Assembly: GCA_031268315.1 (NCBI GenBank)
Contig: JAIRXK010000021.1
Location: 8,859 to 72,858 of the forward strand
Direction: 5' to 3'
From: Puniceicoccales bacterium
GTDB lineage: Bacteria; Verrucomicrobiota; Verrucomicrobiia; Opitutales; JAIRLM01
Length of the DNA stretch: 64,000 nt
Within the stretch, counting starts at the first letter, position 1. Every line of letters starts with the position of its first letter. The notes beneath the pieces were generated by a model that ran no database searches, was not told the origin of the DNA, and saw only the letters and a list, made by a program, of their open reading frames with translations. The position numbers and the translations under genes were made by a program. Shown piece after piece: positions 43,360 through 61,700 of this stretch.

Positions 43360-45114
43360 TTAAACATTGTGTAAGTTTCGCTTTCCCGCTACCCTACTCC
43401 TATGTAGAGCTTCTATAATTTTTTTTGCCGTTTTAAACTTTGCATTCAAAATACGTGCCACTGCTTCGAAATTCATTCGCATCACAATTTTCGCAATGTG
43501 CGTATCTCCTATTAGATCAAGAAAATGCGTTGCGTCCCCATCACTCATTTGCGCCAAAACTACAACAACTTCCCCTATTTGACCTTGCTTGCAGAGCTCA
43601 TTAGAAAACTTTCCGGCAGCATCATCGTTACCCGCTAAAACAAGCGCCATACTACTGGCCGGTATCAACATCGCAATTGATTTGATGCTTTGGCCGTTCA
43701 TTTCTGCTATGGCCTGTGCTTTTTCCTGTATCCCATCGAAAATGCCACTCACTATCTCGTTTTTACGTTGATTTCTTCCACCTACTAGGAGCTTGCTAAA
43801 AATTATCTCTCTAATATCGGTATTTTCATCTAAAATTGTCATTATAGTTAACACTATTTGTTCAGATGGCGTTCGCAATATGAGCACTTCAATTGGGTGG
43901 TCGTAATTTTTATTATTATTAATTATGCTACGTAAAACATCTGCCTTTAACGTAATTTTATTGAAAATATTAGATGCAATTTCCTCATCTTTCTCATCGA
44001 AGCGCCCTTCATCGTTCTCGCCATTAAATCGATGGTCATTACAGCGATTATGGCGCATATAATTGCAGAGATTAACAAAGATATATGCAACGACTCCCAT
44101 GTCCATACGGTGCGTATTAAGAACGCTTGCTTTTTGGGCGGGATCCATTAGCCTTATTGTCTTTAAAATTTTAGTATATCTCATCTCTCCCCTGCGCACA
44201 TCTTTTTTTATTTTAACATTACTGAGAGCCCCTGCCGCCACGTCTTTTTCCGGCATTTCTGTCAAAATCTTACCTGCTGCTACTTCCACATTGGCGCAGA
44301 GAAGCACCTCTAAAACAATTGTTGAAAAAATGCAATTTACACCCAAAATTTTCATAAATTTATCCCATAATTCGAGATCTTTCTGGGCTGCATTTACAAT
44401 TGCATTTATAATATTATCATTGTGCGCAATTCTTTCAAACATTTTCGCTATCACCCGCTTGTCATTCATTTCCACCAAAATATTTACCGCCCACAGTACG
44501 TTGTCATTTTCATATAGTTCCCTGAAAACATTTTCAGCGGCTCTAGCTTCATCTTCCAACGCTGTACCCTGGCGAAAATTCGCTCGGGCTTGATCATTTT
44601 TAAATTTTTCATTGAAATATTCTCTCCATAAAATTTGATCACACAGATCGTCCGGCTCGGAAATTTCGCAAATCACTTTTGCTATTTCGCTGTAACCCTT
44701 CCTTTGCACGATCACTTGAAAAGTTGTAAATTTTACCCCTTTCAAAATTTTCACTTTGTTAGTTAGCCTACCGAAAATTGTAGCTGCTTTTTCACGGTCA
44801 GGGAAATAACTACTGTCGCATAGCACGTTCAAAACATTACTTGCAGCTTTTCCGCTTTCATTTAAAATCAATATCAAGTCATCAACGATCATACTTTCAA
44901 CAACAATTGCAGTGCTATTGCGATTCATGCTCTCCAGAACTTTTCCTTTATTGCGTATTTCTTTATAAATATTAATTACTTCCTGCCTATTATTTTTATA
45001 TTGCTGATCATTACATTGTGACACATCGAAACATAGCGCATTTAAAATATTTCCCGCAAATTTCCCACCGCTATCGCCATTTAAAATACGGGATATGCAA
45101 TTGGCATCTACCAT
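43360..45114 (-). CDS. helical-repeat protein (same family)
   Basis: 584-aa ORF. Motifs GKFAGNILNALCFDV, GKAASNVLNVLCDSS, AAGKFSNELCKQGQIGEVVVVLAQM and KTAKKIIEALHRS. The start ATG is separated from the upstream ORF by only TAG + AAA, in the same frame. Confidence 0.8.
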   Translation of the reverse strand: MVDANCISRILNGDSGGKFAGNILNALCFDVSQCNDQQYKNNRQEVINIYKEIRNKGKVLESMNRNSTAIVVESMIVDDLILILNESGKAASNVLNVLCDSSYFPDREKAATIFGRLTNKVKILKGVKFTTFQVIVQRKGYSEIAKVICEISEPDDLCDQILWREYFNEKFKNDQARANFRQGTALEDEARAAENVFRELYENDNVLWAVNILVEMNDKRVIAKMFERIAHNDNIINAIVNAAQKDLELWDKFMKILGVNCIFSTIVLEVLLCANVEVAAGKILTEMPEKDVAAGALSNVKIKKDVRRGEMRYTKILKTIRLMDPAQKASVLNTHRMDMGVVAYIFVNLCNYMRHNRCNDHRFNGENDEGRFDEKDEEIASNIFNKITLKADVLRSIINNNKNYDHPIEVLILRTPSEQIVLTIMTILDENTDIREIIFSKLLVGGRNQRKNEIVSGIFDGIQEKAQAIAEMNGQSIKSIAMLIPASSMALVLAGNDDAAGKFSNELCKQGQIGEVVVVLAQMSDGDATHFLDLIGDTHIAKIVMRMNFEAVARILNAKFKTAKKIIEALHRSRVAGKRNLHNV

Positions 45115-45117
45115 TTT

Positions 45118-46458
45118 CTACAATTCATCCATTCGCACCCTTTGAATCTTTTGTCGCATTCGCAACGCATTTAAATTGGATCGCATTCGCAGCACAAGTC
45201 CATTCCTTTTCCCGTCAGCACTTGCCGTCGATAGGGCCGCTGCCGCGATTACTTCCACGGGTATCGTATTTAAAAAATTAATTGTCAGTTCTTCTTCGCC
45301 GTCTTCAGTGAGCGTCCTTAGAACATTTGCTATAATTTTGAAATCCTTTTGCAAGTTTTTCAATATGAATTTATGCATCGACAAAGGGTCTACGCCATCA
45401 CCATTGCAGTCGGCATTCTTCTTCTGCTCCTCCAACATTGATGCAGCGATCGCTAAAATCCCCCTGCTATCCGGTGCTTTCTCCATGATGATGCTTCTGT
45501 AATCGCGCACATTGCTATCTTCGTCAACGTATTGCCTTTTTTGCTCTGAAATTGCTTTCCAAAGAAACATTGCCCTCTCTTTATAAATATTTCTTTCAAG
45601 TTTTAAATCGTCATTATTGCCACTATTTGGCTGATTCCATTCCTCATCTAATTTTTCCTTGCGTTCATCATCCGACAATGCGTCATACTGCTCATCCGCA
45701 AATTTACTACACCCACTACTAAATAATTCAATGCATTTTTCTTTAATAAATGCATTAAACTGATCATTGTTGGATTGATCACAACCCAAATAGCTTAGAT
45801 ATAGTGATCCAAGAATTTTCCCAACGGCAGCAGGATTTTCCACCATCATATTGGCTAATTTCTTCTCAGGTACTACCTTTGCTATCGTAATAATGACATT
45901 GTTTTTTGCTCCCAGGATAGATTTAAGAAATATTCCGTATCCTATTCCATTGTTAAGAATACAACTACTCAACATTTCTTCCCCATCTCTGCCATTGGCG
46001 CATAGCGCCTCTAAAATCTTTCCCATAACTTTGATGCGTGTTTCATCCGGTTTATCAGACGAACATAATTTTCGAAAAAATGCTGCTACGCCATTGAGTT
46101 TCATTTTTGATAGCATCATATTAACGGCATTGCTGCTCATTTTTTCAATACCCATTATTTGATCTTTCATTCCAGCAAAAAGATCACACATTATTTGTGT
46201 ATTATTTACACTATTGCAATTGCGCAATTTTCCAAAAGTGGATTCAATTAAATCATGACGCTCATTCAAAGCAGAGAATATTAGATAAGCATAACTCCAT
46301 CCAAAGCGCTTATCGCTGCGACCCGCTATTGTTGCAATGCTACTGCCATTCATAGCCGCGAGAACATTGCCGTTGCGGAATTCAGTAGGTCCTTCGTTAC
46401 AAATTTCAAATGCTTTTACTATTCGCTCCTCTTCATTGCTTTTAGGGTCATCCGCCAA
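45118..46458 (-). CDS. helical-repeat protein (same family)
   Basis: 446-aa ORF. Motifs KVMGKILEALCANGRDGEE and AAVGKILGSLYLS. The only available start is TTG 46458. The frame is open upstream (..IINILL). Confidence 0.7.
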   Translation of the reverse strand: MADDPKSNEEERIVKAFEICNEGPTEFRNGNVLAAMNGSSIATIAGRSDKRFGWSYAYLIFSALNERHDLIESTFGKLRNCNSVNNTQIMCDLFAGMKDQIMGIEKMSSNAVNMMLSKMKLNGVAAFFRKLCSSDKPDETRIKVMGKILEALCANGRDGEEMLSSCILNNGIGYGIFLKSILGAKNNVIITIAKVVPEKKLANMMVENPAAVGKILGSLYLSYLGCDQSNNDQFNAFIKEKCIELFSSGCSKFADEQYDALSDDERKEKLDEEWNQPNSGNNDDLKLERNIYKERAMFLWKAISEQKRQYVDEDSNVRDYRSIIMEKAPDSRGILAIAASMLEEQKKNADCNGDGVDPLSMHKFILKNLQKDFKIIANVLRTLTEDGEEELTINFLNTIPVEVIAAAALSTASADGKRNGLVLRMRSNLNALRMRQKIQRVRMDEL

Positions 46459-46466
46459 AAGGATAT

Positions 46467-46970
46467 TTATAATCCTTCCACGGCTTTCCGTCCTTGCCCT
46501 ATGTCAAATTTATAATCGCCTAAATCGCGATACATGTCGGCCGCCACTTCCAGTAATTTATCATCATAATTTCCTACTGCATCCTTTGCGCATAGCGCTG
46601 TTAAAATCTTTTTAATATCATCGATATTTTCTTTATTCATGCGCACACATGCACCGTTCACTTTTCCATGATTTATGCAAGCTTTTCTGCCATATATGCC
46701 CACCATAATTTCAATAATGCTCTTATTGCATATTCGTGAAAAGAATTTTATATTCCGCCCAAGCAATGCCCGAAAAATCACATCCACTGCACTACTCTCA
46801 ATTAAAGAATACCGAGCACTATCCGCTCGAAGGCTATCTATCGCTTTCACTTTTACATCTCTGCATAGCCACAGCAAAATTTCTTCCACAGTTTCATCGC
46901 CCGCTTTTAAAATCAAATCCGCCGTCTGGGAGCTCATCGAATAGTCGCGCTCAATCCCATTAAAACTCAT
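46467..46970 (-). CDS. helical-repeat protein (same family), small
   Basis: 167 aa. Motifs DETVEEILLWLCRD and IKKILTALCAKDAVGN. ATGA start/stop overlap with the upstream ORF. Confidence 0.7.
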   Translation of the reverse strand: MSFNGIERDYSMSSQTADLILKAGDETVEEILLWLCRDVKVKAIDSLRADSARYSLIESSAVDVIFRALLGRNIKFFSRICNKSIIEIMVGIYGRKACINHGKVNGACVRMNKENIDDIKKILTALCAKDAVGNYDDKLLEVAADMYRDLGDYKFDIGQGRKAVEGL

Positions 46971-47368
46971 TTTTTTAGAATTTCTATGACTAAAGTCGCC
47001 ATTTTATCCCGCTTTGCACTGTCAATTTCGCCGTCCCTATGCTCACATAGCGCCATTAAAACTTCTGTAGCGACTTCGGCATTTTGTTCTAAGGCCAAAA
47101 CTATGAGATCAAGGTCCGATACTTGATCACTGTCGCCATTTAAAGCCTTCAAAATGTCCGCCACCAATGCAGATTTAGAGGCATTGGCAGCTGTGCGATT
47201 TTCGTCTCCGCCGCTACCCGCCGGCGACAACAGCAGATTCGGAATCTGCGTTTCAACTTGAGCACTTAATCCCGAACCTGACGGGCCATTAGCCCCGCTG
47301 GAGAGACCACCGATGCCGCTTTTCACTGGGAAAGAATTGGGAGTAGAATTACTCGTAGAATTAACCAT
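46967..47368 (-). CDS. first ORF of the string: disordered S/G/N-rich N-terminus + one repeat unit
   Basis: 133 aa: MVNSTSNSTPNSFPVKSGIGGLSSGANGPSGSG... then ALEQNAEVATEVLMALCEHRDGE. Confidence 0.7.
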   Translation of the reverse strand: MVNSTSNSTPNSFPVKSGIGGLSSGANGPSGSGLSAQVETQIPNLLLSPAGSGGDENRTAANASKSALVADILKALNGDSDQVSDLDLIVLALEQNAEVATEVLMALCEHRDGEIDSAKRDKMATLVIEILKK

Positions 47369-47631: not shown

Positions 47632-48342
47632 TCAATTGTTCGATATTTTTCCGCCGACATTGCCCCCTTCTTCTACACTTTGAAACAGTAATGCCTCCCA
47701 GCCGGATCTCCTATCGCGGAGTGATGGTTTTACATCATCATTAATCGTTACATTTAATTGGTCAATTGATTTTCCAAATTCTACGATTTCTCCTTTCACT
47801 TCTTCGTCGATACGAGCCCAACTATCATGGCTCTGAATTTTTTCCAAGCGCATCTTTAAAGCGCTACTTTCTTTGTTTAGACTGGTTAATTTTGTTTGAA
47901 GTTGAAAAAGCTCCAGCGCCTTACTGCCATTGGCATAGCTCGCCTTGCGTGTTAGATAGTAGTGCCTTGCAACGGTTATAATCGCTGCCACTACCGCCGA
48001 TATAACTAGGAGAATACCGACGCTCACAGCAATGCCGACGGCAATGTGCATGGACAGTATAAATGCGACCATCGCCGCTGCCGCCGGATGACATACCAAC
48101 GAGATCAACCTGACCACCAATATGGCCACATCAAAAACTACGGAAGTCGCCCACAAAAAAAAGCGGAAATTTGAGCTGGCGCTCTTTCCGCTGATTTTTG
48201 GGATAAACTCAGAAAAAAGAAGCTCCGAGACGGAACACGGATTGCACTCATTATTGGCAGAAAGATCGAAATTTGCATTGACAACATTCTGCATCCCACT
48301 CAATGAGATATTTTCATTATTTAAAATATTTTCTCCTTCCAT
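47632..48342 (-). CDS. Inc-like membrane protein (hydrophobic domain + coiled-coil tail)
   Basis: 236 aa. FFLWATSVVFDVAILVVRLISLVCHPAAAAMVAFILSMHIAVGIAVSVGILLVISAVVAAIITV, followed by LELFQLQTKLTSLNKESSALKMRLEKIQ. Confidence 0.75.
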   Translation of the reverse strand: MEGENILNNENISLSGMQNVVNANFDLSANNECNPCSVSELLFSEFIPKISGKSASSNFRFFLWATSVVFDVAILVVRLISLVCHPAAAAMVAFILSMHIAVGIAVSVGILLVISAVVAAIITVARHYYLTRKASYANGSKALELFQLQTKLTSLNKESSALKMRLEKIQSHDSWARIDEEVKGEIVEFGKSIDQLNVTINDDVKPSLRDRRSGWEALLFQSVEEGGNVGGKISNN

Positions 48343-48556: not shown

Positions 48557-48702
48557 ATCGCAAAATTATCGAAAAGTTTTTGGGGTAAAATTATCGCGCT
48601 TTCATTCGCCTAGAGCCACATTCTCAGCCATTTGCGCGAGTGTTTTGGCTGTAAATTTAGGACGTTAAACCGGTGAAGAAATTTTGCGATTCGCGTCATT
48701 GA
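48557..48702. repeat. intergenic repeat family, copy B
   Basis: See 4147-4322. Its 3' end overlaps the last codons of the 48665-49468 gene on the opposite strand. Confidence 0.75.
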
Positions 48703-49468
48703 TTATTTTCTTACATGCACTCAGTGCCTCATATGCTTCTTTCCATGCGGTACTGACATCATTTTCATTAGGAGAATTCTGGGAGGGATCTTTTTTTTGT
48801 TTCTTTCTCGCACTTTTGACTTTTTCTGCTTCATTTGATAACTTTGAAAAACATTTTTGTAAATTTTGAAAGGATTCCATCAATTTATCGAAATCATCAC
48901 TGTCCTCTAATGCATTATTGTTTAACTTCGATATATCTTCGGTATTTTGGTTGATTGCGTCAAAATTATTATTTATATGATCCTTGCAATATCTCGTATT
49001 GAATTTATTAATTTCAGTGAAGGTAAATTTAATTTCTCTATTTATATTTTCATAGTTGTGGCGTTCTGCTCGGAATCCGAGTTGGCGATCGGATGAATAG
49101 ATAGATTTTAATATATCTTCAATTCGAATGGCAATATCGCTAGACGCTTTCTGGGCACTAAAATCAAAAAAGCTTACAATAAATTTAATGGATTCAAATC
49201 CAAAATAGATAAATATGAAAATGAAAGCAATGCCAAAAACAATAGGTCCTAACAGTGGTATTAATGGCGCTGCGAGGACGAGAAATAAGAAGATTATGCA
49301 ATCAATAACGAACATGCCAATAATTGTAATGGCGGAGAAAAAAATAGCAGATAGCACATCTGTAACGGTAACTTTCTCTTCAAAAAAAGGCTTTCCATTG
49401 GACAAAGGTAGCGGTGAATCCGTGGAATCTTGCGGACGGGACCGAAGAGCAGGAAAATCGCCAGACAT
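48665..49468 (-). CDS. Inc-like membrane protein (bilobed hydrophobic domain + N/D/K-rich helical tail)
   Basis: VLSAIFFSAITIIGMFVIDCIIFLFLVLAAPLIPLLGPIVFGIAFIFIFIYFGF. I prefer the ATG at 49468 (MSGDFPALRS). The TTG at 49507 in the ORF track coincides with a -35 hexamer. Confidence 0.75.
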   Translation of the reverse strand: MSGDFPALRSRPQDSTDSPLPLSNGKPFFEEKVTVTDVLSAIFFSAITIIGMFVIDCIIFLFLVLAAPLIPLLGPIVFGIAFIFIFIYFGFESIKFIVSFFDFSAQKASSDIAIRIEDILKSIYSSDRQLGFRAERHNYENINREIKFTFTEINKFNTRYCKDHINNNFDAINQNTEDISKLNNNALEDSDDFDKLMESFQNLQKCFSKLSNEAEKVKSARKKQKKDPSQNSPNENDVSTAWKEAYEALSACKKIINDANRKISSPV

Positions 49469-49479
49469 AGCAATTGCTA

Positions 49480-49507
49480 ATTCTATGTGAATTTCGAAGT
49501 ATTTCAA
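49480..49507 (-). promoter_or_regulatory. putative promoter
   Basis: The minus strand reads TTGAAA (49502-49507), 16 nt, TAGAAT (49480-49485). The ATG is 11 nt downstream. Confidence 0.5.
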
Positions 49508-49776: not shown

Positions 49777-49951
49777 TCACGCGTCACTTTTGGGGCGATG
49801 TCCCACCGCAACCATTGCGATGATACCCATGCCCCGTTGGACGCCCTTTTGTAGTTTGCAGCATGCGGAATGCAAGGGAAATTTAAAATATTTTTCTGCG
49901 GAGCGAAAAAAAGATTTACATTTGGATTATTTTGTCCATTCTTGGTGTGTA

Positions 49952-51943
49952 ATGGAAGTAGAGAACAGCTGTCCTTCAAAGTTGTCCACCCTCGGTGGGC
50001 AAGAAAATGAGAAATCCATCTCAAATATGAAAATGTGGATCGGCGTAGCTACCGTGGCCGTCGCCATTCTGTGCGTTGCATCGGCCATCGTCGCCTATGT
50101 CACCTGTGCCTCCGTGATCAATTCCGTTGCAATTGCAGTGCTCGTGATCACCGCCGTTTTGACCACCGTGGGGTGCATTGCCCTGCTCATACTGCCAACG
50201 GACAAAAAATCGCAGCAACCTCTGCAGTCGCCTTCCACCCACTCCTCCTCCACTGAGGATTTGCTGAGGAACCTAAAAAATAATCTGCCACCAGTAGAAA
50301 TGTCCAAAAAATTGCCCGATTGTCCACCAAGCCAAGAGGAAAATTCATCCGAAATCCCAGAGAGCGCCACCCCTTCACTCCATGAATACAAGACAGTTTC
50401 TAGCAATACTTTAGAACTCTTAAAACGCTTTGCCCAAGAGGTCTATCCATGCAAAAAAGATCAAAGTGGCATTGCAGGTATTACCAATGATCTTAAATCG
50501 CTCTCAGAAGACGACATTACAGCCTTTTTTGAGAGCCAATTCACAGGAAGCGCGGAGGGAAATACACCGGTCCATTGCCTAATGCTGCTGGTCAATACTG
50601 CCACCAGTAAGGCCTTCGTGGATGCCATAGTTGCATGCGGCGAAAATTCAGCAATTTATGGCTGCTTTTTCAAAGCATTTCTCACGGCACGGAATAACCA
50701 CGGGCTTACCCCCATGGCGTCCCTATGCGGCCATTGCAGAAATCTCGATTTCTTCAAGTGCATGATGAGAAATGCCACCGCACTGATTAAAAATGGCATC
50801 GTAACATCTGAGTGTGTGGTCGACTGCATGGCATGGAATTATGTCGAAGAAATAGTCGCAATAAGCAGCCATGTAAGGGAAACGATATTTTCTATTTTAG
50901 CTTCTAGATACTATTGCTATAAACTCGATGAAGATGAAGATGCGGCATCATTTCTCGATGGGATATACGCCGAAATATTAAACTTCATGGATGCGTTGGG
51001 TACGCCAAGTAATTTAGATCAATTTCTTTCTGAAAAACAAGGCTTTCTCAGTTGCGATCCATCGGTAGTAAAAAATGCCTTAATCTTTGCGGAGAGAAAC
51101 GAGAATAACGGGAAAAAAATTGCCGAAATATTAGGAAAAATAGCGACACTTGAAAACTTACCAAGAACATGTTCTGTGATATTTAGAGCAGCATTTGGTG
51201 ATGCTCCAACGTTCAAGCCCAAAAACTATCGCTTACCTGTGCCCTATCAGCCCCACCGCTCATTCTTCAACAATTTCATTGAAAAATTCATTGCAGCAGT
51301 AGATAAAAAAAGCGAAAAAGAAATCATGCAAATTTTCGCAGAAAAATTCCACGGAGAAACGATCCACGAATGCGTGAAGATGGGTGTCACTACGGCCCCA
51401 TGGACAGAATTAATAGCCGCCGTGAATAAGTGTGGGCAAGAGTCAATCATTTATAAGCACTTTTTCCTTGAATTTATAAGACAAAAGGATCCGTGGTGGG
51501 AAGGGAAGATATTGCACGGCCTAAACATTGATATGTTTGGTGATGTTTTGCTCGCACTGAAAATAATGGCCAAATCAGATCCCCCCAAATCCGAGATAGC
51601 CAGTCTTATGTTCGACTGCAATGAGACGTCATTTTTATCAATCTACATGCACCATCAATTTCCCACTGACCCCAACCGCGTAAAAAAACTCGAAACACTG
51701 CTAGACTTCGCCGGAGAAATTCTATCGGCGGATCAGCTGGAAAATCTTTTGTTTACCTACAAAAGCAATTTCAACATGCCATTTAATTATAATGGTAAAT
51801 TTCTCAACTCGACTGCGTTTTATATGCTGCATTATAAAGGCGGTATTCAACTTAAAAATAAAATCCTTTCGCTCATAGAAAAGACAAGTGAACCCCATAA
51901 AACACGCATGGCGAATGCAATGAAAAATTTAAGCTCCACCTAA
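49952..51943 (+). CDS. Inc-like membrane protein with N-proximal bilobed hydrophobic domain and internally duplicated C-terminal domain
   Basis: WIGVATVAVAILCVASAIVAYVTCASVINSVAIAVLVITAVLTTVGCIALLIL. The start is ATG 49952 or 50027. The ATG at 49790 in the ORF track begins only 17 nt from the tRNA-Leu gene, so I consider it too early. Internal duplication: CGENSAIYGCFFKAFL versus CGQESIIYKHFFLEFI. Confidence 0.75.
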   Translation: MEVENSCPSKLSTLGGQENEKSISNMKMWIGVATVAVAILCVASAIVAYVTCASVINSVAIAVLVITAVLTTVGCIALLILPTDKKSQQPLQSPSTHSSSTEDLLRNLKNNLPPVEMSKKLPDCPPSQEENSSEIPESATPSLHEYKTVSSNTLELLKRFAQEVYPCKKDQSGIAGITNDLKSLSEDDITAFFESQFTGSAEGNTPVHCLMLLVNTATSKAFVDAIVACGENSAIYGCFFKAFLTARNNHGLTPMASLCGHCRNLDFFKCMMRNATALIKNGIVTSECVVDCMAWNYVEEIVAISSHVRETIFSILASRYYCYKLDEDEDAASFLDGIYAEILNFMDALGTPSNLDQFLSEKQGFLSCDPSVVKNALIFAERNENNGKKIAEILGKIATLENLPRTCSVIFRAAFGDAPTFKPKNYRLPVPYQPHRSFFNNFIEKFIAAVDKKSEKEIMQIFAEKFHGETIHECVKMGVTTAPWTELIAAVNKCGQESIIYKHFFLEFIRQKDPWWEGKILHGLNIDMFGDVLLALKIMAKSDPPKSEIASLMFDCNETSFLSIYMHHQFPTDPNRVKKLETLLDFAGEILSADQLENLLFTYKSNFNMPFNYNGKFLNSTAFYMLHYKGGIQLKNKILSLIEKTSEPHKTRMANAMKNLSST

Positions 51944-51984: not shown

Positions 51985-53367
51985 TCACTTACCGATGCAA
52001 AACTTGTTAAATATCTGATCTAAAATAGTTTCCGTTGTCTCTCGACCCGTAATTCTTGCCAATCCGTGGAGGGCGTAGTTGATTTTTGCTGCCACAAATT
52101 CCGGAGACGCTCCTTCCTTTACCAGAGACTTTGCGGCGTTTAACTCGCCAATGGCATCCAATAGGCATTCCCTGTGGCGTGCATTGACCACACAGGGAGC
52201 CCCGTCGGGCACGATTTGATTCGATTTCAATGTGTCAATTATTTGCTGTCTTAGCGCCGCCATATCGCCGCAATCGAGCGCAGAAACGGAAACCTTTGGC
52301 CAAGGAATACCTGGGAGCATTCCATCGTCAATAGCCCGCGGAAGATCCCTTTTATTGAGAACAATGAGGCCGTTTTTTTCCATCAAAATTTCCCCGAGGG
52401 AATCGTCCAAATTTTCCAAAGGAACGGAACCGTCAAAGATGAGCAGCACAAAGTCGGCAAAGCGCAATTTTTCCAAGCTGCGCCGCATGCCTAGCCGCTC
52501 CAACATGTCCTTCGACTGCCGTATTCCCGCCGTGTCAATGATGCGCAAACACCAGTTGTCGACGGAAATGAACTCCTCTAAAAAATCACGGGTAGTGCCG
52601 GGAATGTGGCTAACCAACGCCCTTTCCTTTCCTATGAGCCCATTGAGAATGCTGCTCTTTCCGCCGTTTGGAGGCCCAATGAGCACCGTTCCAATGCCGC
52701 AGTCCAGCAGCGGCCGATAGCGGGCCGTCGATTCGAGGTATCCCAATGTGGCTTGGGCATCTTCCAGCGCAGCGATGGTGGAGTCGTCGCCGCCGTCGGG
52801 CAGGTCTTCCTCGGGAAAATCGATGCGGGATTCCCACTGGGCAGCGACAGCAAAGAGCGCATCCATGACTCCGTTGATCTTCCTTCCCAGCACGCCGGCC
52901 AGCTGATTTTGAGCCACACGCAAGGCCGCCTCACTCTGGGCGTGAATCGTATCGCCCACCGCCTCCGCCTGGGAGAGATCCATCTTCCCGTTAACAAATG
53001 CAGTGCGCGTAAATTCTCCCGGTTCAGCCAGCCGGCAACCGCGCTTGCACAGGTCCTCCAGTATTTTTTGGATAATGAATGGGTTGCCATGGCAGGAAAT
53101 TTCAAGCATGGACTCCCCCGTGTAAGAGTGGGGTGCAGCGTAGTAGGTGACAACCACCAGGTCCAGCGGAGTCCCATCCCGTGCCACATAGTTGCGCGCA
53201 TAGGCGCGGTGTGGCTGCGCACTTTCCAGGAAAAAAATTTCTTCGAAAAGAGACGGACACAGAGAGCCACTACACCGGATGACAGCGACACCGGAAATGC
53301 CGAACGGCGTGGACAACGCGGCAAATGCTGATTTGCTATCCATATTTATAGGTAGACACGCAGTCAA
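51985..53367 (-). CDS. mnmE: tRNA modification GTPase MnmE (TrmE)
   Basis: G1 GPPNGGKSS, G3 DTAG, G4 NKRD, C-terminal FCIGK. The start is possibly the ATG at 53343 (MDSKSAFAALSTP). Confidence 0.93.
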   Translation of the reverse strand: MTACLPINMDSKSAFAALSTPFGISGVAVIRCSGSLCPSLFEEIFFLESAQPHRAYARNYVARDGTPLDLVVVTYYAAPHSYTGESMLEISCHGNPFIIQKILEDLCKRGCRLAEPGEFTRTAFVNGKMDLSQAEAVGDTIHAQSEAALRVAQNQLAGVLGRKINGVMDALFAVAAQWESRIDFPEEDLPDGGDDSTIAALEDAQATLGYLESTARYRPLLDCGIGTVLIGPPNGGKSSILNGLIGKERALVSHIPGTTRDFLEEFISVDNWCLRIIDTAGIRQSKDMLERLGMRRSLEKLRFADFVLLIFDGSVPLENLDDSLGEILMEKNGLIVLNKRDLPRAIDDGMLPGIPWPKVSVSALDCGDMAALRQQIIDTLKSNQIVPDGAPCVVNARHRECLLDAIGELNAAKSLVKEGASPEFVAAKINYALHGLARITGRETTETILDQIFNKFCIGK

Positions 53368-53501
53368 TGGATTTGCCGGCCCATTACAAGTTGTTTCTGG
53401 AAGATATTTTTTGGGAAAAAATGAAAAAGTCTCCCCCGGAGGCGATTAAAAATTATTAAAAAAAATATTGAAAGAAATTTTCGGCGGGCAATGGTGCAGC
53501 G

Positions 53502-54617
53502 ATGGACCCACGCTACGAGCAATTGGCAAAAAATTTAGTTTTCTACTCCATGGATGTGCAACCGGGAGAGAATGTACTCATTAGCACCATCGCTGTGCCA
53601 GCGGAGATGATCATTGCGCTCATGCGCTGCGTACGCGAACGGGGAGGCGCACCGTTCCTTGATTCGATGGACGAGCGCCTGCGCCGGGAATTTCTACTCC
53701 ACGGCACAAAGAAGGAGATGGAATTGATCGGCGCCATGGAATTAAATCGGATTAGGCACATGCAGTGTGCAGTGATTATCCGCGGATCCGACAATATTTT
53801 TGAATGCAGTGATGTGCCGGACACTCAGCAGCGCCTCTACAACGACGCAGTCAAGGTCGCCTTCGACTATCGCGTCAATGAAACGCGCTGGGTGGTGCTG
53901 CGTTGGCCAAACAAATCCATGGCGCAAATGGCGCAAATGAGCACGGAAAATTTTGAAGAATTTTTCTTTCGCGTCTGCAACCTCGACCACAGCCGCATGC
54001 GGGAAGGCGCCGAGGCACTGAAGGCCCTGATGGAGTCAACGGATCGGGTGCACATCAAGGGTCCCGGCGTTGATTTGCAATTCTCAATTAAGGGCATTCC
54101 CGCCAAGCCCTGCATCGGGCACATCAACATACCGGACGGAGAGATTTTCACCGCCCCCGTAAAAGAAAGCGTGGAGGGCGTAATCGCCTACAATGCGCCG
54201 TCCGTCTACCGCAGTCAGCGCTTCGAAAATATCCGCTTCACATTCGAGCGGGGAAAAATCGTGGAGGCAACCGCCAATGATACGAAGGCCATTAACTCCA
54301 TCCTGGACAGCGATGAGGGCGCCCGCTACATCGGCGAATTCGCATTTGGTTTCAATCCATACATCCTTAGCCCAATAGGCGATATTCTCATGGACGAAAA
54401 AATTGCCGGATCCTTCCACTTCACCCCGGGACAGGCCTATAAAAATGATGCCGACAATGGAAATCGCTCCCAAATTCACTGGGACATCGTGTCCATTCAG
54501 CGGAAGGACTACGGCGGCGGCGAAATTTACTTCGACGGAAAACTCATCCGCAAGGACGGGCTGTTTGTCGTGCCGGGCCCCGATAGGCTAAATCCCGACC
54601 ATTTGCTGGAGGGCTAG
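53502..54617 (+). CDS. aminopeptidase, peptidase M29 (AmpS/PepS-like)
   Basis: 371-aa GC-rich ORF. The N-terminus MDPRYEQLAKNLV.YS..VQPGENVLI and the HWDIV motif near the C-terminus match my memory of this family. Not verified by a search. Confidence 0.7.
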   Translation: MDPRYEQLAKNLVFYSMDVQPGENVLISTIAVPAEMIIALMRCVRERGGAPFLDSMDERLRREFLLHGTKKEMELIGAMELNRIRHMQCAVIIRGSDNIFECSDVPDTQQRLYNDAVKVAFDYRVNETRWVVLRWPNKSMAQMAQMSTENFEEFFFRVCNLDHSRMREGAEALKALMESTDRVHIKGPGVDLQFSIKGIPAKPCIGHINIPDGEIFTAPVKESVEGVIAYNAPSVYRSQRFENIRFTFERGKIVEATANDTKAINSILDSDEGARYIGEFAFGFNPYILSPIGDILMDEKIAGSFHFTPGQAYKNDADNGNRSQIHWDIVSIQRKDYGGGEIYFDGKLIRKDGLFVVPGPDRLNPDHLLEG

Positions 54618-54619
54618 GT

Positions 54620-54640
54620 GCCCTCTGGGCCATTTTTTTT
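54620..54640 (+). terminator. weak candidate intrinsic terminator
   Basis: gccc-tct-gggc (only a 4-bp stem) followed by ca + T8, immediately after the stop codon. Confidence 0.3.
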
Positions 54641-54667
54641 CGCCGAAATTGCCATGAATTTCAAAAA

Positions 54668-55639
54668 ATGATTTTGGGCGAACGGTTCTCTTTTACACTG
54701 GGAATGGATTGCCATGGAATGCGCTTGGATGTAGCCCTTGCCCGCTCCTTCGAGGAAAAAAGTCGCACGCAAATTCAGCGGGCATGCCGGGAGGGACTCA
54801 TTCACTGCAACGGGATACCCATTGGAGCAAAGGCCAAGGTGTGCGCCGGACAGACGCTGACCATCCAATGGCTCAGCCAGGGCGAAATGGCGCTGCAGCC
54901 GAGGCAGATGGACTTGGAAATTCTCTACGAAGACGAGCACATGCTGGCCATTAATAAACCCAGCGGGGAGGTGGTGCATCCGGCGCCACACGTCGCCCAA
55001 TCCATCGTCGAAGCGGTTCTACATCACTGCAATGGCCAACTGGCAATGGCCGCGGGAAAGCATCGGCCCGGCGTAGTTCACCGCCTGGATAAAGGAACCT
55101 CCGGAGTGCTCCTATTTGCGAAAACGGACATCGCCTATCATCGCCTTAGCGGAATGTTCGGCAGAAGGGATGTGGAAAAATACTACGAGGCCCTTGCCCA
55201 CGGAAATCCCAAGGAAAAGGAGGGCACCATTCTTCTCCCCATTGGCCGCGATCTCCATTGGCGCACCCGTATGGCCATCCGCGAAAATGGCCGACCTGCC
55301 CACACCCACTGGCAATGCCAACGCCGCTACTCCAACGGCGTTATTCTACTATCTCTGCGCATTTACACGGGCCGAACCCATCAAATTCGCGTGCATCTTG
55401 CCTCCATGCGATGCCCCATTCTCGGCGATAGCACCTATGGATTTCTCAGCGAATGGCTGCCAAATTTGCACATTCCCCGGACCATGCTCCACAGCCACCG
55501 CATCGCACTGGAACACCCGATGACCCACGGACCGCTCCTCATTGAAGCTCCCCGCCCGCGAGACATGGAAATGCTGATTCGACTTTTCGCAGAAACGCCC
55601 AAATTACCGGAAACGACAGCAGGCACGCCGTACAATTAG
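54668..55639 (+). CDS. rluD: RluA-family 23S rRNA pseudouridine synthase (RluD-like)
   Basis: S4-like N-terminus (RLDVALARSF..SRTQIQRACREGLIHCNG). Catalytic motif HRLDKGTSGVLLFAKT. HQIRVH near the C-terminus. Confidence 0.88.
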   Translation: MILGERFSFTLGMDCHGMRLDVALARSFEEKSRTQIQRACREGLIHCNGIPIGAKAKVCAGQTLTIQWLSQGEMALQPRQMDLEILYEDEHMLAINKPSGEVVHPAPHVAQSIVEAVLHHCNGQLAMAAGKHRPGVVHRLDKGTSGVLLFAKTDIAYHRLSGMFGRRDVEKYYEALAHGNPKEKEGTILLPIGRDLHWRTRMAIRENGRPAHTHWQCQRRYSNGVILLSLRIYTGRTHQIRVHLASMRCPILGDSTYGFLSEWLPNLHIPRTMLHSHRIALEHPMTHGPLLIEAPRPRDMEMLIRLFAETPKLPETTAGTPYN

Positions 55640-55734
55640 GCTGAATAGCTCATCCTAGACATTTTAGTTGGATCTCATCCCAGTGAATTTTGAAAATCTT
55701 TACACTGCTACTCCACTTGCGCAGTTAAAAAAAC

Positions 55735-58700
55735 TCAAGCTTCCAGGGCCATTGGTTCTTTTTGCGGTGAAATAATTACTCTTGCATAGGCCAAACCCGT
55801 ACATATGAGAAAGACGACACCCGGCCCAAATATGACTATTTTTGCCGCAATCAAACCAAATGGCACGGCAATGGCCGCTAAAATTCCGCTTCCAAACACA
55901 CCAAAGAGTAGGAGTAAAGCCACTAAAATGCTCACCACTGTGGCAATGGCAAGACCAACGACTAAATATTGACCTTGCTTCGCTTTTTTTATTAGGGCTA
56001 CGCTGCTTATCGCCACTTTGATAGGGCTTTGATTTTGTGTATTTTCATTTTTAATTTGCATCCACTCTTCATTTACCTGTGAATTTTTCCTATCTATTTG
56101 CCAATCATCATTCTCCACTTGAATTTCCTCACTTATTTGCGTATTTGCGCTAGCGGCTTTGTTCAAAAGATCAAAATATTTCTGACGAAACATCTTCGAA
56201 ATTTCTCCATCACAGCAGTCCAATAGGCCAAGTTGCGCAGTGAGCAAATTTTGATTTTTGAAGAAAAAATTCATCTGCTTTTCTTCGGGTTTTTGCGAAA
56301 ATTTCACGTCGAATGCCTTTAAAAATTCTTCGGCAAATTCTTTACTAACAAATTTTTCCATGTCTTTTCTTTCACAAATCGTTCTAAGTAATTTCGAAAT
56401 TAAAAGTGGATTGTTTTGATATTTATTTAATAATTTCGTTAAGTCATCCGGGCTTAAATCGTTCAACGTATTTATGATGATATTATTTTTAAGACATATC
56501 AACATAGTATTCACTTCACTTTCACTGGTGACTGACAAAATAAAATCCAATATTTGCTGCTTCTGCATTTTGCAAAGTAAAAAAGCACACACGTAGTTAA
56601 AATTGCTTTGCTTGCATGATTTACTTTGACGATTATAATTGGAATCATTCCCGAAAGTTACATTAAATAACTTTTCCACAATCTCACAGTTGATGGCACT
56701 GCTCATTTCTTTATCCACAGAGATTCCATGAATAAATTTCGCATAAAGCTCCTTGAGATTATTAAATTCATATGGATCAAGTATTTCGATGAAATCAATC
56801 AGTGATGGATGCCGCAATTGATCATTTCCTTCGTTGGAAATAAGGGTGAGCAGTGCGACCATATTCGGATCTCTAATATCTTCTATTCTAGCAGAATCAT
56901 TGTTCAAAATAAAAGTACATATTTCTATTAGGAATTTCAATGAACTTTCATTGCGGCGCAACAGCAAACTAAGTATTTCCTCATCACTAAATTGTGCTAA
57001 AATATCTTTTATCAAATCTTGCCTATTACTTTCACTGCTATTTATTCTATTCATTAGTGCGGTTAATTTCTTGTTATCATTAATATGCTTTTTACCATAT
57101 TTTAAAACAGTTTTTAAAACATTTGCGCTTATGCTCCCTTTGCCACTTTCACTGAAAACCTCATCAAAAAATTGATTGATATTCATTTTCACTATTTCAT
57201 CGCCTTGGGCGCATAGTCCCGCATAGGCATTGGCTAAAATGCTATTGCCAACTTTTTCATTGCAAAGAATTTCCGCATTCTGAATTTTTTTACGGCATTC
57301 TTGTGCATCATTACTGCGTATCATAAGAAACTTATGAACGGCATCACTGTGCTCGTTGAAATTTCCCATTCCGTGGAGTATTTCGCAGGTTTTGTCTTCA
57401 TTTTTTAGCAATTCCGCAATTTCGCCGTTAAAAAAATTAGACATCCATTTAACGTCATTAAGGAACTCTATCACTTTCGCATCTAATTTAGCTCTAGTAT
57501 TGGCATGTGCATTGCCGTAGGCAGTGGCTAGATAGCAGTTAGTGAGTCGTCCACATTCAATAAGCTTTTTTATCTCACTTAGGTCATTTTTAGCAACAAA
57601 TACACATTTAATATCACTAGCATCTTCATTCCAAACAATGAGAACATCATCTGCGCAAATTTGCGATTTGTGAAAAACCGATAATTCGGCTTTTGTCGCC
57701 TGTAGGAAATTTTTTGAATAGTAAAATGAATTAAAAAATGGATTTTGAAAAAATTTTTCAAATGCACTAAACTCTTCCTTAATTTTCGAAAGTCCCATGG
57801 ACTGACTTCCATCTCCCGCAAATTTATGGAAATGCGCTGCAAGGGTTTGGAGATTACTATCTTCGCCATCACCGGACCATTGCTTTTGCAAATATTCATA
57901 TGCATTGCATTGGTTTGATTCACGCTGCGACAAGTGCTCAAATAGGCAAGTTGGGTTGCGTGAAATTGCGCGATCATTACAATTGCCTTCCTGCATAATA
58001 TTTTCCAATTCAACAAATTGCATTACACTCATTTCCTCATTTTGCTCCTGTTGCACACTCACTTCCACATGCGCTTCCTGCATCTCTTCAAGAATTGCAT
58101 CGGTATGCCCGAAATCTTCGCTGCCACTGCTGCCCAGCGGCACTAGGAATTTTTCATCTTCGGGTATGCGGTCCATGCTTTCAATTGCACGCGCGTTAAT
58201 TTTTTCAATATCACCCTGCATTTTTCCGTATTTTTCCTCTGAAAATTTGCCCTTTAATTTTTCTAGTATTTCGGTCATTCTCTGCATTTTTCTTGCAAAG
58301 TCATTCCCTACGACACCGCGGACTGATTTCAAACATTGCAAATATTTCCAATTGTTGAGTTCAAATAATTTTTCTTCAATGAGGAATTCCGAAAAGCACT
58401 TTCTTAGTTCGATTTGATTTTTACTTCCTTCATTTTCTATATCATCGACTAGCCATCCTTTAATTATCATTACTATCAATTCATGGAGCTGTATTTGCAC
58501 GGCCCGAGCGCGCTGTCTAATGGTGTCATGGGTGGTGTTATTTACGAGATGTTTAATAATACTAATCGACAATTCTTTCTGCCGAGACCCGCCGTAAAAA
58601 TTAGTGCCATCGCTGTCATTTTTTGCCGTTGGCTCTATTTCACTTAGTGCATCTTTACGGACAATTAAGTCCATTTTTTGCCCGGGACCACCGAGAAAGT

Positions 58701-61700
58701 GCCGCTCGCGCATGATACTCTGTGTAAATGCGCCCATTTCCATATTGTGCAAGTTTGCAGTCATCAGACCATGGCCGTCCTGCTTCATGGCGGGGTCGGA
58801 TCCAACGCTGTGTCCCGCATCGAGAAATGTGAAGATTTTATCCCTGCTCTTTGGCCGTTGATTTTCCGCATCATTTAAAACTGTTATTGGAAAATTGCGG
58901 TTTTCACTTTCGAGAATATTCCAAACTTCTGCAATGACAAATGCCTTAGCTTGAGGGTCATACCATTCTATATGTGTAACATCGAGCTCTGCGGAACGAA
59001 TAAATTCAGCGATATCGCAAATGACATCGCGGATTTCCTGGGATACCAGGAAGCACCCGCTGTCGACAATTATGCGGAGATTTTTAATCATAGCCTCTGC
59101 ATTTACACTGGCATCTGCGCCATTTTCATGCGCTCTCCGAATATCCTTCGTCCATTGCTGCAGCAATTTTTTGGCGGTCAGAATGGGCTCGTCGTTTGAA
59201 GTTTCTTCCCCTTCATCAATCATCGTTTCCGGCGCTATGGCATGGATGTGGGAACGCTTATTTTCGTTATTTTCCACAAATTTTGAACATACGGCACCCA
59301 ATGAACCTTGCTGGGGACTATAATTATCCTTCATGCACAGCGGAAATGCACTTCGATTGTAGGTGGTTCCAGTCGCGCCAATGGCCGATTGAAACACATT
59401 TTCTATGATCGCGGATGGGGATGTGCCATAGGAGGATGGATTCCAAACGGCAGCATTCATACAAATTTCTCGAATGAGTGCAATCGTGACCGCGTGACCT
59501 TCCTGAGTTTGCGCGTATTGGCCAATTGCCTCCAAAATATCATTTGGAATGTAGGGATTACCTCTATCATCAGTTTTGACTATATTTGCTAAATCTATCA
59601 CATCTTCACCAAATTGGCAATGCTTAAAATATTCTTTGAACAATTTATTAGACTTAGAAAGATTAAGTTTAATTCCCGCAGCAACTTCTCTATGCATTTG
59701 TATGTTAAATTCGATAATAAATTCTGAAATTGCTTTCTTAGAAAAACCTTCGACCATGGCACTTAGACATGAAAAGCAAATTATTTCCCACGGGTTTTGA
59801 AATTTGCTCATCGACGGCTTAGAGTTTGCATAGGGTACCACATTTCCCGTTTCGGGATCATAGCCAAAATCTTTATTATAAACCTTCTGAAAGCAATGCG
59901 GAATGAAATGGGTAACCATTGCCCGCAGGGCAAGGATGGATTTCAATTGATCGGATCCAAATTGCTCGATAATGTGATGAATTCTTTCCTGCTGCGCTTC
60001 AACGCTGAGATCATTTTCAGACAACCCATCCAATTCACCGGCCATAAATTTAATGAGCAATTCCTCATCATCCTCGCTGAGCATTTTCGCATTTTCTGAA
60101 CTCAATTTCATCGCATTTAGCTTATTTCTAATTGCTTTTTTTAATTGATTGTGCAACTCTTGTTGAGCAATCAAACTTTGCTGGTTGCATCTACATGCAG
60201 CTAATAGCTCCTTTGGCAAATAATTAAATATAAAATCTGTGACAGCATTAATTTCATTTTTCTCAATACTTTTTATATTTTTTTCCCCGTTTGGCGCCGC
60301 CTCAACAATGAATGCCTCCTTTGGATTGGCAGTGAGGTGAATTTCATCAAATATGCCGGTGCACTTTTTTAAAAGCTTCATGACCTCTAAATACTCCGAA
60401 AGATACTTTTCCATGCCTTCATCGGAATTCGCTTCGTATGAATTGAAAAGCGTGAGCAGTGCCATGAGGTCACTGGATGTAAATACGGGTATGTGGGTTC
60501 TTTTTTTCATCATATTTTTTAATTTCCTGCGAAAAAATTGCATTCCCTTCACTGATCTCAGGCTTTGAAAATCCAATTTAATTGCCTCAACGCCAATCTT
60601 TAGCTCACTAAAAATTGCGGGCAACTCCTTGATCACGGAAGAAAGCTGGGTCGAGTGAGATACGATGACGGGATAGCCAAAATAGTGACTATCACTGTCA
60701 TTTTCTCGCTTTTTCCTCATATAGAGCCCCATGAGCACCAAAGCGGGAATGAGGGCCTTTGACTTTCCGCTTCCCATGAGCTGCTGAATAAGTGCGCCTG
60801 TCGCTATCTCATCTCCACTTTTATTTCCATTCTGAACTGCCTGAAAAATGAAGTATATTTTTTCTATTTGATCGGGGCGTAGGCGAATTTGCGACATCAT
60901 TTCCAAAATAAGCGAAAATCGATGGATCATTTTGCGATGCATTCCACTTTCGGTTTTGTCGAATTTGCCCAATTGGCTGTCGCGGAAAGAGCGAATGAGT
61001 GAAGCGGCCATACCCCACGTAATGCCATTTTTATTCTTCACAAATGCGTTCAATGCATCCATGGTCTTTTGAATATGCCGCATGGAATTTATTCTGGAAA
61101 TATAATTTTCAATTAATTCATTAAGGCGATCTAAATTTTCAGCTTTAAAACTTGGGTTATTCCCATGAATGTAATCGAGCGCCTTCTTCCTATGCCCCCC
61201 AGCGTAGTATCCAAATATGTGGTGAATGACTTCGGAAATATTCGCCGACCTCCACTTGCCGGCGCCAAATGTACTTTCGTATTTTCCAGCGTATAGCAAA
61301 TTGCTGATTTCACTGAGAAATTCAGGAATTACGTCGCATAAATTGCTCCTTTGAACTTCGAGAAATGCTACAAAGTTAGTCACCTCGTCTTCGCCTATGT
61401 TTCTAAAAAAATCTTCCTTTAAAAATGGATCATTTTGCCTCTTGGCTTGCTCTTGCGCCCCAAGATTCATTTCCTCTTCAAAGGATTTCATGTCCTCCTG
61501 AGCTTCGATACCTTCGCTGGAATCTATTCCTTCCGCTATGTCATAGTGCGGTGCTGGAGAGTTACTTTCGTCCGGCGAATCGAAAATATTCCCCTCTCCA
61601 TCGCCGTCATTTATTTTTACTTTGAAAGTTTTTTTTGCCATTTCCACTACGTCCGCTTCAACGGTATTGCAACTGCTAAACTTTTCGTCCAACGCAGCGC

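Follow-up and report, generated by a model that had tools for sequence, protein, structure and literature searches.

A single in-frame TAG between two adjacent ORFs of a Puniceicoccales bacterium falls inside a helical repeat unit and probably reflects the decay of a giant gene

In a 64-kb window (the whole stretch of DNA analysed here, from the MAG of an uncultured organism annotated as 'Puniceicoccales bacterium') a single TAG codon separates two adjacent minus-strand ORFs of 446 and 584 aa and thereby interrupts a repeat unit. We consider it likely that this TAG is a genuine nonsense mutation in a giant gene on its way to being lost; ordinary gene decay would have left about seven disabling lesions there, the TAG among them. 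We favor this reading because the repeat unit is colinear across the TAG, because further frameshifts are found in the same array and because N- and C-terminal modules occur singly, as they do in an intact 732-aa paralog. The former gene would have comprised about 2,490 codons for a disordered N-terminus, roughly 30 five-helix repeats of ~66 residues (faintly MgtE_N-like) and a two-lobed C-terminal membrane anchor. Six ORFs of 133, 167, 446, 584, 810 and 295 aa, together with a tail reaching to 39895, would be the remains of this one helical-repeat membrane-protein gene.

On the minus strand the sequence around the stop reads CGA ATG GAT GAA TTG TAG AAA ATG GTA GAT GCC, with the TAG at 45120..45118, AAA at 45117..45115 and ATG at 45114..45112. 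The gap between the 446-aa ORF (45118..46458, annotated as hypothetical protein MDR1437925.1 / LBI69_02585) and the 584-aa ORF (43360..45114, hypothetical protein MDR1437924.1 / LBI69_02580) comprises one stop and one codon. The first bases of the codons of both ORFs lie at coordinates congruent to 0 mod 3, and translation from 46458 to 43360 meets exactly one internal stop, the sole break over 1,032 codons. This bears out two statements of an earlier sequence-only reading, namely that a single in-frame TAG lies between the two ORFs and that both are in one frame. Taken alone, the common frame is a 1-in-3 chance event. The feature that exceeds chance, beyond the mere shared frame, is where the stop falls inside the repeat unit.

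The repeat unit is about 66 residues long and consists of five helices. In the unit holding the TAG, helices 1-4 are located upstream of the stop and helix 5 starts from the next codon. The features of this region are:

45058..45324, minus strand: TAG-containing repeat unit (unit profile HMM, two-unit HMM and scoring blocks)
45324..45193, minus strand: helices 1-4 of this unit (HMM and scoring blocks)
45192..45118, minus strand: Arg-rich insert of 25 residues including the TAG, the extra residues of this unit
45118..45192, minus strand: 27-nt periodic stretch CTGCGAATGCGA... / TTGCGAATGCGA... / GTGCGAATGGAT..., encoding LRMRSNLNA / LRMRQKIQR / VRMDEL*, in which an exact 11-mer recurs at 27-nt spacing
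45118..45120, minus strand: in-frame TAG, lesion J3, residue 751 of the repaired 2491-residue ORF and end of the annotated 446-aa ORF
45117..45070, minus strand: helix-5 block KMVDANCISRILNGDS of this unit (scoring-block match)
45112..45114, minus strand: ATG, initiation codon annotated for the 584-aa ORF, at the start of the helix-5 block
from 45057, minus strand: next repeat unit (AGNILNALC), downstream of the TAG-containing unit, beginning at residue 772 of the repaired ORF (unit HMM)

The position-specific scoring blocks were built from the other repeat units, leaving out the TAG-containing unit, and the unit profile HMM was trained with the TAG region masked. The helix 3-4 block scored best at residues 704-726 of the repaired ORF, corresponding to 45261..45193 of the window (p=0.0013 per 23-residue window, 39 windows tested). 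Of 26 windows of 16 residues scored with the helix-5 block, the best begins at residue 752, which immediately follows the TAG (p=0.0015 per window). After correction for the windows tested both p-values are ~0.04-0.05, borderline singly; the two blocks flank the TAG colinearly and in the expected order. Furthermore, the unit profile HMM aligned residues 683-719 to positions 4-40 of the unit (E 0.008), and matches to a two-unit HMM follow in the same order across the TAG. The repeat units near J3 are degenerate, and 25 extra residues part the two halves of the TAG-containing unit.

A family pattern spanning the stop had also been proposed from the letters alone. The repeat unit does continue across the stop; the proposed register was slightly off, as the Met...ILN spacing suits the Met after the stop (ATG) rather than the preceding 'MD'. 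Unit columns 48 and 50 carry Met more often than any other residue (8 of 27 and 5 of 27 units), and the ATG at 45112..45114 is most likely a pre-existing internal Met codon of the repeat and no evolved start. The extra residues of the unit coincide with the 27-nt periodic stretch, which probably arose by tandem duplication of a short in-frame segment within the helix 4-5 loop, the TAG being in the third copy. Tandem Repeats Finder made no call around the stop, and the 27-nt periodicity rests on the exact 11-mer pair only. An AlphaFold2 model of a 259-residue stretch across the TAG had a mean pLDDT of 50.7, with values below 50 throughout the junction.

The two ORFs belong to a series of six tightly packed minus-strand ORFs running from 47368 to 39987, followed by an unannotated tail to 39895, which would make up a former gene of 7.5 kb. 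The fragments and the paralog used for comparison are:

46967..47368, minus strand: fragment 1, 133-aa ORF, beginning with the only disordered N-terminus of the array and continuing into the first repeat helices; two codons before its ATG there is a stop
46467..46970, minus strand: fragment 2, 167-aa ORF
45118..46458, minus strand: fragment 3, 446-aa ORF MDR1437925.1, degenerate repeat units
43360..45114, minus strand: fragment 4, 584-aa ORF MDR1437924.1, begins mid-unit and has a weak MgtE_N match
40846..43278, minus strand: fragment 5, 810-aa ORF, with 12 repeat units in a good state of preservation; the ATG annotated as its start falls within a unit, where helix 5 and helix 1 join
39987..40874, minus strand: fragment 6, 295-aa ORF, last repeats, linker and first lobe of the membrane anchor
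21359..23557, minus strand: intact 732-aa paralog with disordered N-terminus, six repeat units, linker and two-lobed C-terminal membrane anchor

The paralog served as an architectural reference; it is much shorter, so only its architecture is colinear with that of the fragmented gene. Disordered N-terminus, repeats, linker and two-lobed anchor follow one another in the array in the same order as in the paralog, the N- and C-terminal modules being present once each and at opposite ends. Fragment 6 is colinear with residues 310-693 of the paralog. Neither the 446-aa nor the 584-aa ORF has an N-terminal region or a membrane anchor.

Besides the in-frame stop (J3) the array contains four clear frameshifts (J4a, J4b, J5 and J6) and two probable ones (J1 and J2), and repeat units continue across these lesions. 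All of them would have accumulated in one gene during its decay. From 5' to 3' the lesions other than J3 are:

46970..46976, minus strand: probable lesion J1, an A7 run where one extra A would join ...EILKK to MSFNGI...
46447..46494, minus strand: probable lesion J2, marked by the helix-5 block RTESRGRIINILLADD in the frame of the 446-aa ORF (p=0.0014 per window)
43268..43393, minus strand: lesions J4a and J4b, frameshifts at about 43396 and 43267
40846..40857, minus strand: lesion J5, +1 frameshift at the 810/295 junction (three-frame reading, unit HMM and scoring blocks)
39895..40002, minus strand: lesion J6, -1 at the G4 run 39999-40002; behind it the second lobe of the anchor, VVTMISLVSLAFLASVSIFVELGSFVMKSRSTLRN*, forms an unannotated tail

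At J5 the 810-aa frame ends in ...KMDNDSVVSKIV*, and the reading goes on as NYLKVEKIFNILNSNAKVAAKIM in the frame of the 295-aa ORF once one base (T 40848) is skipped. Repair yields a unit that is complete and canonical in length, with a score of 53.1 bits (iE 1.6e-18) versus 35 and 10 bits for the halves in their separate frames; the codon before the stop is the last of the helix 3-4 block, and in the other frame the helix-5 block (p=1.4e-4) follows directly. The annotated 81-nt gap that separates the 584-aa ORF from the 810-aa ORF encodes, in a third frame, GSGKAKLTQCLMGMNDEMVAWITFSEDKSGVIACILAANGNS, the middle and end of a repeat unit. This off-frame stretch was matched by the unit HMM at positions 32-65, and the repaired unit reached an iE of 2e-4; its helix-5 block was placed at SEDKSGVIACILAANG (p=4e-4), and the repaired 'ILAANGNS-AARIL' has the canonical N+3+AAKIL spacing. 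The frameshift at J6 precedes the second membrane helix, and the repaired C-terminus aligns over both lobes with the 732-aa paralog (E 1e-7). As to the probable lesions, repair of J1 recreates the L-x-K-M-S-x-N motif of helix 2/3, and a unit-HMM match at residues 100-139 spans the junction. The helix-5 block at J2 lies upstream of and across the TTG start of the 446-aa ORF and overlaps the 3' end of the 167-aa ORF, which is in another frame.

Judged from these readings, the junctions adjoining J3 cannot be designed gene boundaries, because a one-base skip restores the unit at J5, the J4 gap encodes the remainder of a unit and the lobe behind J6 aligns with the paralog. The sequence-only reading had doubted a designed intergenic gap at the TAG and named a nonsense mutation as one option: both views hold up, since the stop breaks a repeat unit and the two ORFs are best seen as parts of one former reading frame. 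A scan of the ORF cluster for promoters and terminators set none of the junctions apart. Another family of the window likewise includes a frameshifted copy (16565-17498).

Could the breaks be flaws of the sequence? An assembly or consensus artefact would mean that the real gene is intact and that TAG and frameshifts are errors of the MAG, caused for instance by a mixture of strains that differ at this locus. The sequence comes from one 111-kb contig of a MAG and has no replicate, and J1 (A7 run) and J6 (G4 run) sit at homopolymers, where errors or slippage are commonest. However, such breaks are missing from ~51 kb of coding sequence elsewhere in the window. This includes two uninterrupted ORFs of 15.7 kb and 8.2 kb, which stay in frame through 40 A/T runs of 7 or more and 31 G/C runs of 4 or more: at a lesion rate of 7 per 7.5 kb about 22 lesions would be expected in these 24 kb, and 0 were observed. 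MutS, MnmE, RluD-like and DprA proteins were matched by their family models essentially end to end. Random sequencing error thus appears an unlikely source of the lesions, because giant ORFs and housekeeping genes are intact and long homopolymer runs are all in frame. Moreover, J3 is a substitution, and J4a, J4b and J5 lie outside homopolymers. Near-identical DNA repeats able to provoke misassembly are absent (copies are 60-85% identical over about 40 nt), and the repeats are too diverged at the DNA level for collapse or mis-joining. Altogether we hold an artefact to be unlikely, and we infer that the lesions are genuine and did not arise in assembly, and that the gene no longer yields a single protein. 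The sequence-only reading had named a read-through site as its other option. If the TAG were read through or recoded in a programmed way, by a suppressor tRNA, pyrrolysine or a context-driven mechanism, a protein of 1,031 residues would result. An in-frame stop with the repeat pattern going on beyond it is what such a mechanism would look like, but we found no support for it. TAG ends the RluD-like gene 18 residues past the end of the family-model match. Reassignment of TAG was ruled out, as it is the normal terminator of this conserved gene at its natural C-terminus. The Rfam scan of the window returned two tRNAs, tRNA-Lys(UUU) and tRNA-Leu(GAG), and no other matches; the window holds no CUA-anticodon, suppressor or Pyl tRNA. 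RNA folding around and after the TAG gave an MFE of -27.4 kcal/mol versus a shuffle mean of -28.95 (z = 0.46), so that a stable, stimulatory structure is missing. Finally, read-through is powerless against the frameshifts (at least four) further along the same former gene, which leaves it a very slim chance.

A nonsense split might also have been followed by functional fission, both halves still being made and selected and the downstream one being translated by termination-reinitiation at TAG-AAA-ATG. The ATG lies 3 nt past the stop, and the fragments are long uninterrupted ORFs (446, 584 and 810 codons). No Shine-Dalgarno-like motif was found at usable spacing before the ATG at 45112..45114, only a GGA at 13 nt. 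This is not telling, as many genes of the genome lack one; in the window most genes, including mutS, mnmE and rluD, are without the motif. Against fission, the 584-aa product would begin in the last helix of a unit, without the N-terminal region and membrane anchor of the paralog, and the frameshifts leave coding remnants outside any ORF (J4 gap, J6 tail), a mark of decay. We regard fission as improbable. A more elaborate version, in which TAG-AAA-ATG is a maintained fission point (through reinitiation, or through low-level read-through mixing 446-aa and 1,031-aa products) and the A7/G4 runs at J1/J6 act as slippage switches, so that different portions of a surface or host-facing repeat protein are produced, would be distinctly speculative and is given little credence here. 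The two ORFs might instead be unremarkable neighboring genes that belong to one repeat family, evolved independently and happen to share a frame. In favor of this, PGAP and IMG both called two genes, and operons often have short stop-start spacers, a third of which keep the frame by chance. Yet the end of the 446-aa ORF and the start of the 584-aa ORF supply complementary positions of one repeat unit, the other junctions likewise split units and show frameshifts, and the whole array has just one N-terminal and one C-terminal module. The chance of independent genes is accordingly close to negligible.

A point against gene decay, the preferred explanation, is that long open frames are left (446, 584 and 810 codons), which would call for lesions of recent date or for continued selection on the pieces. 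For annotation, the six hypothetical proteins LBI69_02570 to LBI69_02595 are best treated as fragments of one disrupted gene, and the entries of 446 and 584 aa are better not counted as separate protein families. The locus is a modest further sign that gene decay is under way in a deep-branching Puniceicoccales lineage, whose giant genes lacking known relatives and Inc-like membrane proteins fit a host-associated life. For stop-codon recoding nothing new follows from this TAG.

Homologue searches returned little beyond the locus itself. A word-indexed protein search for the fused 1,032-aa sequence recovered the 584-aa ORF alone, an exhaustive phmmer search against 1.84 billion representatives only the 446-aa and 584-aa ORFs themselves, and the 810-aa ORF as protein query only itself. 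A junction-spanning query against genome and metagenome contig collections found no related locus. The repeat-unit profile search of proteins gave no matches and also missed the window's own repeat proteins. Synteny via MnmE was of no use, as its best relatives are 42-43% identical and too distant. Among the collections searched, the repeat-protein family appears only in the Puniceicoccales MAG.

As to known systems, the all-helical ~66-residue unit weakly resembles MgtE_N (PF03448) and FliG-type helical repeats. The 584-aa ORF scored 28.2 bits against a cut-off of 25.9 bits, a weak match with no single stretch significant, and the 810-aa ORF 16.8 bits, with single units at E 0.067-0.14. In contrast to MgtE there are no CBS or transporter domains here, and the unit is repeated about 30 times. 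The unit profile had no significant match among PDB sequences, the best (E 0.016) being a designed repeat protein. Programmed UAG read-through and pyrrolysine decoding share with our case an in-frame UAG with coding sequence beyond it; here, however, UAG is a normal terminator, the window holds no such machinery, no stimulatory structure is present and frameshifts occur in the same gene. Like chlamydial inclusion-membrane (Inc) proteins, the family ends in a two-lobed hydrophobic segment, neighboring ORFs have similar segments and one of them shows a weak CT214-family match (E 3e-4), but its score of 19.9 bits is far under the 90-bit cut-off, the organism is a verrucomicrobium and type III secretion genes were not noticed in the window. 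The closest parallel is offered by host-associated bacteria such as Rickettsia, Mycobacterium leprae and Sodalis, in which nonsense and frameshift mutations have given rise to split genes and pseudogenes. Our case differs in that no orthologue represents the intact ancestor, the family is limited to one MAG and host association is something we infer. The likeness lies in one former frame turned into several adjacent ORFs through one stop and several 1-nt indels, in fragments automatically annotated as separate hypothetical proteins, and in an intact paralog that shows the original plan.

On the minus strand, positions 45120..45112 read TAG AAA ATG, with CGA ATG GAT GAA TTG before and GTA GAT GCC after this stretch. 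The stop codon lies between two ORFs:

45118..46458, minus strand: 446-aa ORF, upstream of the TAG
43360..45114, minus strand: 584-aa ORF, downstream of the TAG

Both share one frame, and over the 1,032 codons of 46458..43360 the translation is interrupted by a stop just once, so that strand sequence and translation agree with the single in-frame TAG described in the sequence-only reading. In public databases each ORF has its own hypothetical-protein entry (MDR1437925.1 / LBI69_02585 for the 446-aa ORF, MDR1437924.1 / LBI69_02580 for the 584-aa ORF); the contig, 111 kb long, belongs to a MAG called 'Puniceicoccales bacterium'.

A helical repeat is common to seven minus-strand ORFs, namely 21359..23557 and six located between 47368 and 39987. 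The unit consensus, AAKILTALHSKSEKEKFVKYLEEMDENEIVAALLEMDNDATIAKIILELKFNKIAEILNKNAKV, forms five helices, and the 810-aa ORF holds 12 clear copies of about 62–74 residues each. For these ORFs Pfam returned only weak matches to MgtE_N, and the unit profile found no significant match among PDB sequences. One small member of the family, the 732-aa ORF 21359..23557, is intact; between its disordered N-terminus and its two-lobed hydrophobic C-terminus lie six units followed by a linker. Between its helical repeats and the membrane anchor (residues about 500–640) we observed a Ser/Asn/Gln/Glu-rich tandem repeat of about 46 residues (…SVDLSSVNDSSQVDNYMQxKQENExEKLSxDL…). In the array of six ORFs a disordered N-terminus is present only once, in the 133-aa ORF, where a stop lies two codons 5’ of the ATG, and a two-lobed membrane anchor only once, in the 295-aa ORF and its tail; their order is that of the intact paralog. 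No internal spacer exceeds 81 nt, and the one of that length is a coding remnant. Judged by this architecture, the six ORFs at 47368–39987 appear to be one gene, not six.

To place the TAG within a unit we used unit profile HMMs trained on the other ORFs (round 1) or on all units, the junction region being masked (round 2), as well as ungapped scoring blocks derived from all units except the one containing the TAG. Residues are numbered along the frame in which all lesions are mended. The masked-training HMM matched unit positions 4–40 to residues 683–719 (45324..45214, E 0.008), and the following unit starts at 45057 with AGNILNALC. The helix 3-4 block falls on residues 704–726 (p = 0.0013 per window), while the helix-5 block, KMVDANCISRILNGDS, begins with the first codon after the TAG (p = 0.0015 per window). 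With matches on both sides, the stop lies in the helix 4-5 loop of a single unit whose parts run colinear across it. The proposal that a family motif spans the stop holds insofar as one unit does; its register, which relied on the 'MD' preceding the stop, is displaced by about six residues. The two blocks are separated by 25 extra residues (LRMRSNLNA LRMRQKIQR VRMDEL*), which are accounted for by a stretch at 45118–45192 (minus strand) with a 27-nt period. Here TGCGAATGCGA recurs exactly, and (C/T/G)TGCGAATG... is found three times directly 5’ of and including the TAG, which lies in copy three. TRF made no call on this stretch, which is probably a small in-frame tandem duplication. Since Met is the most frequent residue at the first helix-5 position (8 of 27 units), the ATG after the TAG is most simply a pre-existing internal Met codon.

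At the 810/295 junction the upstream frame terminates in ...KMDNDSVVSKIV*, and skipping T 40848 leads to NYLKVEKIFNILNSNAKVAAKIM in the 295-aa frame. The repaired unit has full, canonical length and scores 53.1 bits (iE 1.6e-18), compared to 35.3 and 10.2 bits for its halves in separate frames; the last sense codon closes the helix 3-4 block and the next codon, in the other frame, opens the helix-5 block (p = 1.4e-4). The 81-nt 'intergenic' gap of the 584/810 junction reads GSGKAKLTQCLMGMNDEMVAWITFSEDKSGVIACILAANGNS in the third frame, matching unit positions 32–65 and including a helix-5 block (p = 4e-4), and skipping one base connects it, at the canonical N+3+AAKIL spacing, to AARILTAAH in the 810-aa ORF. 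At the end of the 295-aa ORF a G4 run (39999–40002) is followed by VVTMISLVSLAFLASVSIFVELGSFVMKSRSTLRN* in another frame, which forms the second membrane lobe. Once repaired, the tail can be aligned over both lobes with the C-terminal end of the intact 732-aa paralog (E 1e-7). These four frameshifts, two of them at the 584/810 junction, are clear. Those at the 133/167 and 167/446 junctions are probable: an extra A in the A7 run 46970–46976 would give ...EILKKMSFNGI..., restoring the family motif LxKMSxN, and the 446 frame contains a helix-5 block, RTESRGRIINILLADD (p = 0.0014), that begins ahead of this ORF's TTG start and extends over it. At both homopolymers, A7 and G4, a single-base gain would restore the frame; either run may be prone to slippage or reflect a sequencing error. 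Mending every lesion yields a reading frame of 2,491 residues from 47368 to 39895.

A read-through site had also been considered for the TAG. MutS, DprA, MnmE and an RluD-like synthase in the window match their family models essentially end to end. The RluD-like gene stops at TAG 18 residues past the end of its family match, and TAG closes three other ORFs; it is therefore an ordinary stop and working terminator in this genome. The 141 nt around the TAG fold no better than shuffles (z = 0.46), and the window's only tRNAs are tRNA-Lys(UUU) and tRNA-Leu(GAG), with no further Rfam match. Read-through is thus without support, and passing a single stop would leave the several frameshifts of the gene in place. 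Physically, ribosomes could plausibly reinitiate at the adjacent ATG; the Shine-Dalgarno analysis is of no help here because most genes in the window lack the motif. Fission into pieces that still function is improbable in our view, ranking second among the rivals after an assembly artefact.

The artefact, though the main rival, is itself unlikely. Elsewhere in the window, about 51 kb of coding sequence is without a comparable break, and the 15.7-kb and 8.2-kb giant ORFs stay in frame through 40 A/T runs of ≥7 and 31 G/C runs of ≥4, where the lesion density of the cluster would predict about 22 lesions in 24 kb. Of the lesions themselves, three frameshifts are not in homopolymers, and the TAG is a substitution. 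Repeat copies are only 60–85% identical over about 40 nt of DNA, making collapse or mis-joining unlikely. Moreover, a different paralog family contains a second broken gene: 16565–17498 (+), annotated merely as a 179-aa ORF, is a frameshifted partial copy of the 468-aa ORF 18361..19767 (+) (46% identical, tblastn), with residues 70–339 in frame 2 (16565–17350) and 322–435 in frame 3 (17298–17498). On this indirect evidence the lesions are very probably real. The earlier suggestion of a nonsense mutation was right, the TAG being placed within a colinear unit, and the stop is likely just one of about seven lesions in a giant gene for a repeat protein that is undergoing decay. Such decay is ordinary; what is unusual is a gene without a known family.

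No orthologue in which conservation of the stop might be compared turned up in the collections searched. When 1.84 billion representatives were searched exhaustively with the fused protein, the two ORFs themselves came back and nothing else. Word-indexed protein searches gave self matches alone (one, which came back empty and also missed the window's own proteins, carries no weight), and locus searches with a junction-spanning query gave no match. The closest MnmE is 42–43% identical, indicating a lineage without a close sequenced relative in the searched collections.

The window holds further families. The giant ORFs 23961..39665 (+; 5,234 aa) and 55735..63972 (−; >2,745 aa, running past the window edge) are uninterrupted paralogs that share 50% identity along about 2,400 residues. 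Five tandem paralogs at 1602..13520 (+; 500–903 aa), 26–39% identical across their N-terminal 200–470 residues, are the only genes of the window with clear GGAG-type ribosome-binding sites. Base composition is strongly split: G+C content is about 52–53% for the housekeeping genes mutS, mnmE and rluD-like (14001–16000 and 52001–56000) versus 31–43% for the family-less giant, repeat and membrane-protein genes (22001–48000). Beside the cluster, ORFs 47632..48342 (−), 48665..49507 (−) and 49790..51943 (+) carry long hydrophobic segments of two or three lobes, and coiled-coil-like tails come after these. Along with the repeat family's two-lobed anchor, these segments and a weak match of one of the three ORFs to CT214, a family of chlamydial inclusion-membrane proteins (E 3e-4; 19.9 bits, cut-off 90 bits), hint at proteins targeted to a host membrane.
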